A stretch of 64,000 nucleotides of DNA from Escherichia phage Bf23, in the sequence record OR083247.1. One strand, given 5' to 3'. The position numbers and the translations under genes are program-made. Below, one piece after another: positions 30,781 to 33,627 of the stretch. The number at the start of each line of letters is the position of its first letter. Position 1 is the stretch's first letter. The notes under the pieces are model-generated. The model was not told the origin of the DNA. It ran no database searches and saw nothing but the letters and a program-made list of their open reading frames with translations.

Positions 30781-30858
30781 CCTGGGATTCGAACCCAGAA
30801 CTGACGGATTAAAGGTCCGCTACTCTTATCCAGTTGAGCTAGCAATCCAAATTCTCTA
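30781..30858 (-). tRNA. tRNA-Lys (anticodon TTT)
   Basis: perfect acceptor GGATTGC/GCAATCC, T-arm CTGGG-TTCGAAT-CCCAG, loop CCTTTAA (C at position 33). Confidence 0.5.
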
Positions 30859-31312
30859 CTAATAGTTTGAAAGCGTCTAACAGAGGTACTTCAAACCATT
30901 CTCCTGATACTTTGTAGTCTTTCAGAAGATTATGTAATGCTTTTTCAGTTCTTCTCTTGTCCGAGGAGAATCTAAAATGGTATAACTTGTAATCACGATA
31001 TGGCGAATATGTTTGATAACTAGACAGTCTTTCATTTACGTCTACTGTCATACCTATCTTATAGAGTCCAGGCCATGCTGGGTTACCTATTACATATACA
31101 AACCCTTCTGTTATAGGGATTTTATGCTCCCTTTTATACTTCAGCAGGTTTAACGCTGCCATTCTATAACAGAACTTAAACTCTGAGGATTTTAGTTTAC
31201 CTTCTTTACCAGATATTTCGTTATACTTCTCCATATACCTACGTATTAAGGAGTCAGTAATAGTAAAGTGCTTTGGAAGATCCAGGGCTTGAAGTACACT
31301 GTTAATAAGCAT
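30839..31312 (-). CDS. T5orf172-family domain protein
   Basis: 157-aa ORF; 'GFVYVIGNPAWPGLYKIGMT...YQTYSPYRDYKL', paralogous to 33109-33627; 3' end overlaps tRNA-Lys by about 20 nt. Confidence 0.55.
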   Translation of the reverse strand: MLINSVLQALDLPKHFTITDSLIRRYMEKYNEISGKEGKLKSSEFKFCYRMAALNLLKYKREHKIPITEGFVYVIGNPAWPGLYKIGMTVDVNERLSSYQTYSPYRDYKLYHFRFSSDKRRTEKALHNLLKDYKVSGEWFEVPLLDAFKLLVENLDC

Positions 31313-31486
31313 AAACTTCCTTAATAGAATGGACTTTTAAGTAAGAATGATTAATCCCAAACTCCGCCATTACTTCTTTTTCATCTTTTCCATAATGTGC
31401 AAGTAAGGATCTTGAGGTATTATTACCTAAACGTTTGTCACTTACTACTAATCGAAATACTTTCATTTCGAAATCCTCTATTAAAA

Positions 31487-31564
31487 TGGAAGCGGGTGCA
31501 GGAATCGAACCTACCTCTTTCTAGCTTATGAGACTAGCGATCTCTACCAGAGATCTAACCCGCA
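31487..31564 (-). tRNA. tRNA with anticodon CAT (Met, fMet or Ile2)
   Basis: D-stem GATC/GATC, anticodon stem CTAGT/GCTAG, loop CTCATAA, T-loop TTCGATT. Confidence 0.5.
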
Positions 31565-31570
31565 ATTGTT

Positions 31571-31646
31571 TGGTCAGTGCGGCAGGACTCGAACCTGCGA
31601 CCCGAAGCATCCAAGGCTCCCACGCTACCAACTGCGCTACGCACTG
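31571..31646 (-). tRNA. tRNA-Pro (anticodon TGG)
   Basis: perfect acceptor CAGTGCG/CGCACTG, anticodon stem GGAGC/GCTTC, loop CTTGGAT, T-arm GCAGG-TTCGAGT-CCTGC. Confidence 0.6.
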
Positions 31647-31677
31647 TTAATTTTTGTTAACTCACTTTATAAAATAT

Positions 31678-31706
31678 ATTATACAGATAATTAAGCATAA
31701 TAGCAA
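31678..31706 (-). promoter_or_regulatory. T5-type early promoter (-35 TTGCTA, -10 TATAAT) reading into the tRNA cluster
   Basis: conserved cassette. Confidence 0.55.
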
Positions 31707-31973
31707 ATGAATTTTTAATAAATTTACTTATTGTGTAGGCCACCTGGGGGCTATCAACCCCACGGCTGACAAAGAAGTTTGCGAGACTTCTCTTAAAAGC
31801 CAGAATAGACCCGCCGATCTATCGGAACCTACATAATAAGTAAACTTTCGTTTACTTACACCTACTTGGTCAGGAGGATTTTCAGCGACTAGAACCGGCC
31901 GGAAACTTATCGCCTTGTTTTACTACCACCTTACGGACGCACAAGTTGTTACACGAATGCGCAAGCTCGGTTT

Positions 31974-32047
31974 GGTAGATTTGGTGCGGTCGGAGGGAAT
32001 CGAACCCCCAACTTCTGGTTGGCAACCAAAAATTATACCCTTTAACT
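31974..32047 (-). tRNA. tRNA-Gly (anticodon GCC)
   Basis: anticodon stem TTTGG/CCAGA, loop TTGCCAA, T-loop TTCGATT, CCA encoded; one acceptor mismatch. Confidence 0.5.
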
Positions 32048-32057
32048 ACGAACGCAA

Positions 32058-32177
32058 AATAAGTCATTCTAGGCAGGATTCGAACCTGCTATCACTTGTG
32101 CGGACTTACGAGAACCATTCTTTCACTCGAATCGAACGAGCTTCTGCCCTAGCCAAGCTGGTTTCCCCATCAACCAC
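32058..32177 (-). ncRNA. about 120-nt composite tRNA-like RNA closed by a perfect 7-bp acceptor-like helix, with two internal T-arm-like hairpins
   Basis: ATTCTAG (32171-32177) pairs perfectly with CTAGAAT (32059-32065); T-arms GCAGG-TTCGAAT-CCTGC and GCTCG-TTCGATT-CGAGT; D-arm-like TGGTT-GATGGGGA-AACCA; no canonical anticodon arm. Confidence 0.35.
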
Positions 32178-32307
32178 GCTAGAATGTTTGATTGTTTTCA
32201 GTGCAAGAGTCCGAGTCTTGGACACGACCGCTTCGCAAGTACATAGGCAGCTTATCATGAGTCAGCACTTCCGAATTGCTAGCTCCGTGTTCTGCACTGA
32301 AATTTTA

Positions 32308-32655
32308 TTAGTTTAACCGTAAAGTATTATCTACTTCACCATTAATTGTTCGGCATTCCTCTGGGATTGTCGGAGTGGCCTTGTATTCCCACCACTCAGC
32401 ACCGTCATACTCCCCACGTTCTAGCCAAGTTCCATCGGCAAACCATACATTACCATAAAGTAATTGTCCACCGTATCCAGAATCATATTCAAAGTCTAGG
32501 TTATTAAGAAAATCCTCAATATCTTCTTCTGTATAGCCTAAAGGTAGTACCCAAACTTTTTTATCCCCATAATACCCGAATTCTATTTTAATACACTTAA
32601 CTTCAGAATTAGTATTTTTTAAGGCAAGTAACAACTCTTCTTTGGCATTACGCAT
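32308..32655 (-). CDS. hypothetical protein
   Basis: 115-aa ORF. Confidence 0.45.
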   Translation of the reverse strand: MRNAKEELLLALKNTNSEVKCIKIEFGYYGDKKVWVLPLGYTEEDIEDFLNNLDFEYDSGYGGQLLYGNVWFADGTWLERGEYDGAEWWEYKATPTIPEECRTINGEVDNTLRLN

Positions 32656-32680
32656 AGTATATTCTCATACTGAATTATTT

Positions 32681-32757
32681 TGGCGCGACCGATGGGATTT
32701 GAACCCACATTCTCTCCCGTGACAGGGGAGTACCATTACCAAGCCAGCCCCGGTCGC
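32681..32757 (-). tRNA. tRNA-Asp (anticodon GTC)
   Basis: perfect acceptor GCGACCG/CGGTCGC, anticodon stem CTCCC/GGGAG, loop CTGTCAC, T-loop TTCAAAT. Confidence 0.6.
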
Positions 32758-32766
32758 ATAATTTAT

Positions 32767-32952
32767 TTACTCAGCTTTGAGTTTTTCAATAGCTGCATTA
32801 AGTTCTTTAAGAAACTCTTTTCGTACATTAAGACGATTGAGACTTACTAGTATATCATGTTTAAGTTCTTCGATGTATTTCTTCTCAACTTCAATATTGT
32901 TGATAGTGCTATCACGATGAACCTCTAGCTGTGCAATTACGTTCTTAGACAT
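32767..32952 (-). CDS. small coiled-coil protein
   Basis: 61-aa ORF. Confidence 0.35.
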   Translation of the reverse strand: MSKNVIAQLEVHRDSTINNIEVEKKYIEELKHDILVSLNRLNVRKEFLKELNAAIEKLKAE

Positions 32953-33054
32953 ACTTATTTCCTCAGTTATTAATGAAAATGGTATCTGTGGCTGAATTCG
33001 ATGTCAGCAATGATAGCTGGTTGGCTACCGGTTTACTTAACTCTACACAGAATT

Positions 33055-33132
33055 TGGCGGTTCCTGCTGGATTCGAACCAGCAACCCTCAACTTAACAAG
33101 ATGCCGCTCTAACCAATTAGAGCTAAGGAACC
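33055..33132 (-). tRNA. tRNA, probably Asn (anticodon GTT)
   Basis: perfect acceptor GGTTCCT/AGGAACC, D-arm GCTC-TAATTGGTTA-GAGC, T-arm GCTGG-TTCGAAT-CCAGC; anticodon stem poorly paired. Confidence 0.45.
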
Positions 33133-33627
33133 ATATAAGTCAGAACTAGAGTTAATACGTTCTAGATATTTACTAAGATCTCTAGAATTTATACTAAACC
33201 ACTCATGTTCTTTTAAATCTTTGAAATACTGGTGAATTAGTTTTTCACCTTTTCGTTTGTCAAACCAAAAAGACCAATGCTCTAACTTATAATCCCTATA
33301 AGGGGAATAAGTCTGATATTGAGCTAATCTCTCTTTTGGATTTTGACTCATGCCTATTTTATACTGATTTTTCCATGCAGGATTACTAATACAGTATACA
33401 AAACCTTCAGAAATAGGAAGTTTATTTTCCTGCTTAAACTTTATAAAGGAAAGTGCAGCAAGTTTTCTCGAATACATAGTATTTGTATTCTTTTTGGTAT
33501 TACCATTGGTTCCTGAAAGATTTATATATTCTTCCATAAATCTTTGGATTAGTTCTGCAGTTATATAGAAGGGCTCATTAGTAACAACGCCTTTCTTTAC
33601 CAAACTATCAAAAACTTTTGTATGCAC
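33109..33627 (-). CDS. T5orf172-family domain protein
   Basis: 172-aa ORF; 'GFVYCISNPAWKNQYKIGMS...YQTYSPYRDYKL'; 3' end overlaps the 5' end of the adjacent tRNA. Confidence 0.6.
   Translation of the reverse strand: MHTKVFDSLVKKGVVTNEPFYITAELIQRFMEEYINLSGTNGNTKKNTNTMYSRKLAALSFIKFKQENKLPISEGFVYCISNPAWKNQYKIGMSQNPKERLAQYQTYSPYRDYKLEHWSFWFDKRKGEKLIHQYFKDLKEHEWFSINSRDLSKYLERINSSSDLYGSLALIG

Follow-up and report, generated by a model that had tools for sequence, protein, structure and literature searches.

The GIY-YIG homing endonuclease SegB is encoded in the tRNA cluster of phage T4, cuts tRNA genes and recognises tRNA T-arm sequence (PMC2330249), and a study from 2026 describes SegB as widely co-localised with tRNAs, which it amplifies against tRNA-targeting defences (PMC13096335). 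For the tRNA region of phage T5, the HNH homing endonucleases F-TflI, II and IV have been on record since 2004 (PMID 15456135, cited in PMC2330249 and PMC10644984). Genes of the T5orf172 family were treated as homing-endonuclease genes by Barth et al. (2023), with T5-like phages listed as enriched (PMC10448857; here and below, statements on this source refer to the passages that were searched), and the neighbourhoods described there are those of essential genes, for example terminase, ribonucleotide reductase or capsid. These passages do not link T5orf172 genes to tRNA genes, and their four mentions of 'tRNA' are unrelated to the gene neighbourhoods. Here we analyse two small T5orf172 genes in the tRNA array of Escherichia phage BF23, ORF trn 2.12.1 and ORF trn 2.8 (ORF 2.12.1 and ORF 2.8 in the following), within a stretch of 64,000 nucleotides from sequence record OR083247.1, referred to as the window. 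Comparison of their sequences and sites suggests that both are probably free-standing homing-endonuclease genes, each fused to a tRNA allele of its own, with the ORF and the tRNA together as the predicted mobile cassette.

Positions 27000-36262 of the window are 99.9% identical to the BF23 tRNA-gene region in AJ604530, and beyond this match the window agrees with the complete BF23 genome, for which 20 tRNAs and a deletion of ~4 kb between hegA and a second nuclease gene have been reported (PMC10644984); ARAGORN finds 20 tRNAs in the window. An earlier reading, made from the letters of the window without database searches (the sequence-only reading), had placed five ORFs among the tRNA genes, three of the T5orf172 type and two of the HNH type, and these were found exactly at the coordinates claimed. 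All five, as well as tRNA-Lys and tRNA-Asn, lie on the minus strand among the tRNA genes of the early region. AJ604530 lists ORF 2.12.1 and ORF 2.8 as hypothetical proteins and gives ribosome-binding sites for both, the T5 record annotates T5.069, which corresponds to ORF 2.8, as hypothetical, and in GenBank certain homologs already bear the names 'putative homing endonuclease' or 'GIY-YIG nuclease family protein'.

Occupied and empty sites in T5-like tRNA regions

Synteny across the tRNA islands of T5-like phages, which the sequence-only reading had proposed as a check, was compared in 20 tRNA regions (L003-L022, with T5 as L008) obtained from IMG/VR and anchored on the conserved neighbour orf2.10, and tRNAs and nuclease genes were mapped in each of them. 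Across these 20 syntenic loci and the window, ORF 2.12.1 is present in five (those listed are BF23, L009, L010 and L014) and absent at 13 loci, T5 among them, and the interval from tRNA-fMet to tRNA-Lys amounts to 638 nt with the ORF versus 188-190 nt without it. ORF 2.8 is present in nine, eight of the 20 loci and the window (those listed are BF23, T5, L006, L007, L010, L011, L014 and L015), and absent at nine loci that retain both flanking tRNAs, and the interval between tRNA-Cys and tRNA-Asn is 516 nt with the ORF versus 152 nt or 6-7 nt without it. All four combinations of presence and absence were seen at two sites only ~1.8 kb apart, and the check therefore bore out that both small ORFs are optional genes at fixed sites, as expected of homing-endonuclease genes. 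Additional paralogs occupy other sites, namely the interval between tRNA-Tyr and tRNA-Glu (L015, L020), the position before tRNA-Leu(UAG) (L015) and the position before tRNA-Arg (L005), where they overlap the downstream tRNA by 15, 15 and 39 nt, respectively.

When occupied and empty sites were aligned, identity with ORF-less genomes at the Lys site ended in the final ~15 nt of orf2.12, whose end is overlapped by the ATG of ORF 2.12.1, and returned directly past the CCA of tRNA-Lys. Similarly, identity at the Asn site ended directly past the CCA of tRNA-Cys and returned directly past the CCA of tRNA-Asn. The alignments show that the apparent unit of exchange is the ORF together with its downstream tRNA. 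The tRNA alleles differ with the state of the site: tRNA-Lys of all genomes with ORF 2.12.1 is 78 nt long with the 5' end GGATTGC, whereas ORF-less genomes have 79-nt alleles of the AGATCGC/AGGTCGC type or the GGGTTGC type of T5. Among the 20 loci, tRNA-Asn has 78 nt wherever ORF 2.8 is present and 83 nt, with a long variable region and barely alignable to the 78-nt allele, at all ORF-less loci that retain it. All of these tRNA-Lys and tRNA-Asn alleles form good cloverleaves.

The linkage between ORF and tRNA allele was also followed in a collection of 50,697 phage records, in which a cassette was counted as carried when at least 80% of ORF plus tRNA was covered. The BF23-type tRNA-Lys occurs in 87 records, in 86 of them at full length, and 85 of these 86 carry the cassette. 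This tRNA has an identity of at least 99% in 77 of the records, whereas ORF 2.12.1 reaches only 83-86% nucleotide identity in 67 records (phages of Epseptimavirus, Yersinia and Citrobacter), and since the tRNA remained near-constant while the ORF diverged, the association is an old and stable one. The 78-nt tRNA-Asn allele was found in 133 records, and the full cassette in 79 of them at the sensitivity of megablast. In Klebsiella phage Sugarland, which belongs to a different genus (Sugarlandvirus; L083:1037-1581), an ORF 2.8 homolog of 41% identity overlaps by 10 nt the same tRNA-Asn allele as in BF23 (96% nucleotide identity), and the gene order there, Tyr-ORF-Asn-Cys, differs from that of BF23. 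A characterised homing gene gives a similar picture: at loci with T5 hegD (F-TflII), a distinct tRNA-Gln(CUG) allele is overlapped by hegD, and two loci retain this allele type without hegD.

Some properties of the tRNAs at and near these sites were noted in passing. In the ORF-linked tRNA-Lys(UUU), the anticodon loop reads C-C-UUU-A-A with C at position 33, which is U in the ORF-less alleles and in tRNA-Lys of T5. Position 33 of tRNAs is nearly universally U, and C33 adjoins the cut position of PrrC-type anticodon nucleases. Judging from the at least 99% identity in 77 phage records, the C33 tRNA-Lys is probably functional. In many ORF 2.8-less genomes, a highly conserved non-coding spacer of 152 nt lies between tRNA-Cys and the 83-nt tRNA-Asn (L016:9367-9518; also L009, L013, L017 and L019-L021); it had no match in Rfam and its folding signal was weak (z = -1.8), and it may be another small stable RNA of the tRNA region. 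tRNA positions of T5-like phages are often multi-allelic with very different alleles, such as five or more tRNA-Leu(UAG) forms of 77-87 nt, tRNA-Tyr forms of 81-91 nt and multiple forms of tRNA-Glu and tRNA-Gln(CUG), and in L007 a 94-nt tRNA-Glu call contains an internal duplication.

According to the sequence-only reading, both paralogs end about 20 nt inside the adjacent tRNA, given as tRNA-Lys and a probable tRNA-Asn. ARAGORN calls both tRNAs, so that the identity of tRNA-Asn is certain, and the overlaps are real because both frames run without an earlier in-frame stop; their lengths, however, are 10 nt for ORF 2.12.1 with tRNA-Lys and 24 nt for ORF 2.8 with tRNA-Asn. ORF 2.12.1 ends with ...TTG GAT TGC TAG, where tRNA-Lys begins at the last G of TTG, and its first 10 nt thus provide the final codons and the stop TAG (tRNA positions 8-10). 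The 3' end of ORF 2.8, GGT TCC TTA GCT CTA ATT GGT TAG, crosses the acceptor and D arms, and these first 24 nt of tRNA-Asn code for residues 166-172 (GSLALIG) and the stop codon, which lies in the D arm. Another case of an ORF running into a tRNA of this region is the non-nuclease orf2.7* (33711-33902, minus strand), which encodes 63 aa with DUF7695 and CxxC...CxC motifs and is found in only some T5-like genomes. Close packing of ORFs against tRNA 5' ends is general in the BF23 region, where the remaining gaps between ORFs and tRNAs mostly measure 1-10 nt.

One might suspect chance frames or mis-annotations, with the overlaps as artefacts of ORF calling, given that the ORF lists are mechanical and that the tRNA-encoded C-terminal tails show little conservation and low model confidence. 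This explanation is effectively refuted, and we give it next to no weight, in view of the strong Pfam and PHROG matches, 27 homolog clusters in databases, conserved full-length homologs across genera, the ribosome-binding sites in AJ604530 and the uninterrupted frames. The tails of the homologs resemble each other neither in sequence nor in length, which is what one would expect if the tRNA that follows determines them.

Positions in the window and basis of the assignments for the nuclease genes, tRNAs and cassette boundaries discussed in the text
Feature	Position	Strand	Basis or remark
ORF trn 2.12.1 of BF23, 157 aa, T5orf172/MUG113 (GIY-YIG clan), putative homing endonuclease	30839..31312	-	ORF call, Pfam, PHROG
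ORF trn 2.8 of BF23 (= T5.069), 172 aa, paralog of ORF 2.12.1	33109..33627	-	GTG start preceded by a ribosome-binding site
tRNA-Lys(UUU), 78-nt 'BF23-type' allele	30771..30848	-	ARAGORN
tRNA-Asn(GUU), 78-nt allele	33055..33132	-	ARAGORN
orf2.12, 54 aa; its last ~15 nt bound the cassette of ORF 2.12.1 and tRNA-Lys upstream	31302..31466	-	Alignment of occupied and empty sites
tRNA-Cys; the ORF 2.8 and tRNA-Asn cassette starts directly after its CCA	33649..33724	-	Junction sequences
hegA, H-N-H endonuclease F-TflIV, N-terminal LuxR-type HTH	35527..36210	-	100% identical to CAE53202 of AJ604530; phrog_14736, 2.6e-80
229-aa protein (BF23 ORF97), N-terminal DUF4379 and CapR zinc-finger modules, C-terminal T5orf172/MUG113	37170..37859	-	Pfam, PHROG; no adjacent tRNA
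HNH_3 endonuclease gene, 181 aa, inserted next to the RNase H gene, with the ORF that precedes thymidylate synthase on the other side	42465..43010	-	Pfam, 1.2e-14; phrog_99, 7.5e-62

The small T5orf172 subfamily and its proteins

A profile search of IMG/VR built from the paralogs led to 60 loci, among which homologs that reach 32% identity or more and include the N-terminal domain were considered close and full-length. All 19 of these close homologs sit in tRNA arrays, and in 17 of the 19 the stop codon lies between -24 and +4 nt relative to the 5' end of a tRNA, whereby seven isotypes (Asn, Glu, Asp, Lys, Tyr, Pro and Leu) are represented at the stops. For more distant T5orf172 proteins, whose match is confined to the nuclease domain, a tRNA within 1.5 kb is mostly lacking; since this is so, the tie to tRNAs, as judged from gene placement, is a property of the small T5orf172 subfamily, and it probably resides in its N-terminal domain. 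Two phage families, T5-like and T4-like, hold the subfamily. In the T4-like Klebsiella phage Lion_ER11 (L147:994-1593), a homolog of ORF 2.8 overlaps tRNA-Asn by 10 nt, and the homolog in VR26 sits in the T4-type tRNA region. The tRNA array of Lion_ER11 also has a separately annotated homing endonuclease at its end.

ORF 2.12.1 and ORF 2.8 share 50% identity across 137 aa (E=8e-46) as well as the motifs GFVYxI, YKIGM and YQTYSPYRDYKL, in agreement with the paralogy and the common core that had been recognised in the letters. For the proteins of 157, 172 and 229 aa, scores of 69.5, 59.3 and 36.2 bits were obtained with MUG113 (PF13455) and of 54.7, 47.6 and 29.9 bits with T5orf172 (PF10544), all above the Pfam gathering cutoffs of 22.3 and 20 bits, respectively, and phrog_5032 was matched by ORF 2.12.1 at 6e-53 and by ORF 2.8 at 2e-63. 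NCBIfam models were found for none of these three proteins, the family profile had no match among sequences of PDB chains even at E<=10, and the PADLOC matches, to the candidate defence protein PDC-S57, were at the level of domains only and are uninformative here. In an AlphaFold model of a small T5orf172 protein (pLDDT 88.4), a three-helix N-terminal domain (residues 2-67) precedes an alpha/beta core with three strands, confidence is lowest in the tail encoded by the tRNA, and SLX1 GIY-YIG nucleases rank best among the structural matches of this predicted structure.

Across 26-30 homologs with identities down to ~28%, the residues G75, Y78, K90, G92, R100, E128, E142 and W143 (numbering of ORF 2.8; G70, Y73, K85, G87, R95, E123, E138 and W139 in ORF 2.12.1) are invariant, while the Tyr of the second 'YIG' motif varies (Y/F/V/L/I). 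The invariant Tyr, Arg and Glu are putative catalytic residues, an assignment made by comparison with GIY-YIG enzymes that have been characterised and with a Glu-dependent T5orf172 nuclease (cited in PMC10448857). Their conservation bears on the idea that the proteins are domesticated derivatives which no longer cleave and instead act as DNA- or RNA-binding regulators, as CapR does for the PLE satellite, or as factors that work on the neighbouring tRNA or on its precursor. Domestication of T5orf172-associated modules is known from other systems (CapR; PMC8096241, PMC10448857), at 157-172 aa the proteins are short and have no recognisable DNA-binding domain, and strict adjacency to tRNAs could mean a function at the RNA level. 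However, invariance of GIY-YIG-type Tyr, Arg and Glu over such distances would not be expected after loss of catalysis, nor would presence/absence polymorphism be expected of a core regulator, and we regard domestication as improbable.

A number of observations weigh against homing by these genes, and they have to be set against the evidence given so far. The canonical GIY-YIG model PF01541 (cutoff 22.6 bits) stayed below threshold for ORF 2.8 (13.6 bits, E=0.087) and did not match ORF 2.12.1, and the helical N-terminal domain of ~65 residues shows no recognisable DNA-binding fold and no convincing structural match. In at least two phages, the Salmonella phages smaug and GSW6 (Epseptimavirus), the 78-nt tRNA-Asn follows tRNA-Cys at a distance of 8 nt with no ORF between them, and therefore the linkage of this allele is not absolute. 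Low diversity of the cassettes (0.6-1.6%) compared with their 600-nt flanks (4.5-7.6%) in ORF-bearing genomes was considered as a sign of recent spread and dropped; in sliding windows, flank diversity proved to be inflated by blocks of indels or replacements, and alignable flank blocks are 94-100% identical, as are the cassettes. The tRNA region is highly mosaic, flanks included, and at most tRNA positions with divergent alleles in L003-L022 no nuclease gene is adjacent, so that modules can be exchanged without these ORFs. Finally, ORF-into-tRNA overlap is by itself not diagnostic of nuclease genes, because non-nuclease ORFs of the BF23 region overlap tRNAs as well (orf2.7* and tRNA-Cys by 14 nt, orf2.20 and tRNA-Met by 6 nt). 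The sequence-only reading had taken such 3' overlaps as part of the signature of selfish homing-endonuclease-like genes; taken alone, these overlaps do not identify such genes, whereas polymorphism, conserved residues and the placement of the subfamily at tRNA 5' ends support the reading.

Some of these observations would also fit a situation in which the ORFs are optional accessory genes that do not mobilise themselves, their patchiness being due to generic recombination of tRNA modules or to breaks made by other nucleases, such as HNH enzymes, and their role being a different one, for example exclusion, by cutting DNA of the host or of competitor phages, or counter-defence. The mosaic region, the many divergent alleles away from nuclease genes, the tRNA-Asn allele that some phages have without the ORF and the overlaps of non-nuclease ORFs are in favour of it, and so are the 4.25-kb deletion in BF23 described below, which arose between two tRNA T-arm-like repeats, and the benefit that SegB confers on its phage by amplifying the tRNA locus (PMC13096335). 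Against it stands the near-perfect linkage of ORF 2.12.1 with its tRNA-Lys allele (85/86), and together with the placement of the subfamily directly before the 5' ends of tRNAs, which recurs in two phage families and is hard to explain otherwise, this linkage argues for a functional tie of the nuclease with tRNA genes; moreover, the conserved putative catalytic residues suggest an active nuclease. We therefore consider the accessory-gene explanation rather unlikely and prefer the interpretation of ORF 2.12.1 and ORF 2.8 as homing-endonuclease genes fused to their tRNA alleles.

Other nuclease genes and the BF23 deletion

The third, divergent copy with zinc fingers that had been proposed from the letters proved to be a 229-aa protein in which DUF4379 (34.3 bits) and CapR (31.5 bits) accompany the T5orf172 domain, and it is the nuclease that flanks the BF23 deletion (PMC10644984). 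Of the 50,697 records, only five, from four distinct phages, contain its gene (87-100% identity), and among the 446 records that hold its flanks ~5 have it, which corresponds to a sporadic insertion. In the two small paralogs, CapR/DUF723/DUF4379-type modules were detected neither as Pfam matches nor as Cys motifs. The two HNH genes also turned out as claimed, one of them being hegA for F-TflIV. The hegA gene of the window is 99% identical to hegA of T5, and among the 20 loci only BF23 and T5 have it. For the HNH_3 gene, the segment is covered to 80% or more in 35 of 439 flank-holding records.

A segment of 4.25 kb that the BF23 record of 2004 contains (L001, AJ604530, positions 9911-14162) is missing from the window, with the junction at window positions ~36247-36269. 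Lost are tRNA-Ile2 except its 3' part, tRNA-Ser3, a TOPRIM/Rad gene, tRNA-Arg and the greater part of rnaX. At the junction lies a 23-nt repeat that resembles a tRNA T-arm (GGATTCGAACCTAC...), and a hybrid tRNA remnant adjoins hegA. As the segment is present in the 2004 record and the junction lies in a T-arm-like repeat, the deletion differs among BF23 stocks and arose through recombination of tRNA-like repeats.

Proposed cassette homing and comparison with known systems

In a mixed infection with an ORF-less T5-like phage, the nuclease would cut the ORF-less allele in or beside the matching resident tRNA gene, and recombinational repair off the ORF-bearing genome would copy the ORF together with its linked tRNA allele, which presumably lacks the target site. 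The resident tRNA gene would thereby be swapped precisely between the boundaries of the neighbouring tRNAs, the exchange ending in conserved neighbours. With the stop codon located in the tRNA, RNase P would remove it when it processes the polycistronic early transcript, and synthesis of the nuclease would be limited. The removal of stop codons by tRNA processing was rejected as a new idea, since separation of the stop codon from the ORF in this way has already been proposed for SegB and its tRNA-Arg and for the F-Tfl genes of T5 (PMC2330249). For ORF 2.12.1 and ORF 2.8, we infer DNA cleavage, the location of the target, homing and the effect of RNase P, and the statement of the sequence-only reading that such genes target tRNA loci would apply to the BF23 T5orf172 proteins by analogy with T4 SegB (PMC2330249).

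More speculatively, and with considerable doubt on our part, the small T5orf172 subfamily (phrog_5032 type) may act as a 'tRNA-cassette driver'. Each lineage would be tied to one tRNA allele, homing would replace the resident tRNA with a xenologous one (some of these are unusual, such as the C33 tRNA-Lys), variants that escape host anticodon nucleases could spread by such a gene drive, and removal of the stop codon by RNase P would throttle the nuclease. Phage tRNA arrays are now regarded as counter-defence loci, T4 SegB has lately been found to mobilise as well as amplify them, and BF23 versus T5 at tRNA-Lys offers a testable system for selfish nucleases that shuffle tRNA alleles among phages.

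The finding is largely anticipated and introduces no new principle: reports of homing endonucleases in the tRNA region of T5 go back to 2004, and T5orf172 genes have already been called homing genes. What the present comparison of genomes adds is the apparently fixed pairing of small T5orf172 lineages with private tRNA alleles, the exact boundaries of the predicted cassettes and the occurrence of this pattern in two phage families.

Compared with ICP1-type T5orf172 homing genes with CapR/DUF723 zinc fingers (PMC10448857), the BF23 proteins belong to the same nuclease domain family, and the 229-aa protein has exactly the architecture DUF4379, CapR and T5orf172 described there, whereas the two small paralogs have no zinc-finger module and are located at tRNA genes. 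The F-Tfl genes of T5 lie in the same genomic region and overlap tRNAs with their 3' ends in the same manner (hegC and tRNA-Ser2 by 14 nt, hegD and tRNA-Gln2 by 23 nt); like the BF23 pair they are patchy among T5-like phages, loci with hegD have a distinct tRNA-Gln allele, and hegA is found within the window itself. F-Tfl enzymes, however, are of the HNH type and have been reported as site-specific endonucleases, whereas the BF23 pair encodes putative nucleases of the GIY-YIG/T5orf172 type.

The closest parallels exist with T4 SegB. In both cases, genes of the GIY-YIG superfamily reside in a phage tRNA array, are absent from some close relatives and have their 3' ends at the start of a tRNA or within it; co-localisation of SegB homologs with tRNAs is statistically supported, the BF23 subfamily is likewise tRNA-associated, and spread of the unit, which takes the neighbouring tRNA along in the case of SegB, is proposed to do so for the BF23 pair. 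The activity of SegB has been demonstrated, whereas the BF23 proteins are known from their sequences, and each BF23 lineage is tied to one tRNA allele, in which it differs from SegB. With 157-172 aa and a different helical N-terminal domain, the BF23 proteins are also distinct from SegB (666-bp ORF, ~221 aa), and they match T5orf172/MUG113 instead of the canonical PF01541, so that a SegB-like layout is encountered outside the SegB sequence family. A second branch of the GIY-YIG superfamily, unrelated in sequence to SegB, appears to share this tie to the 5' ends of tRNAs.

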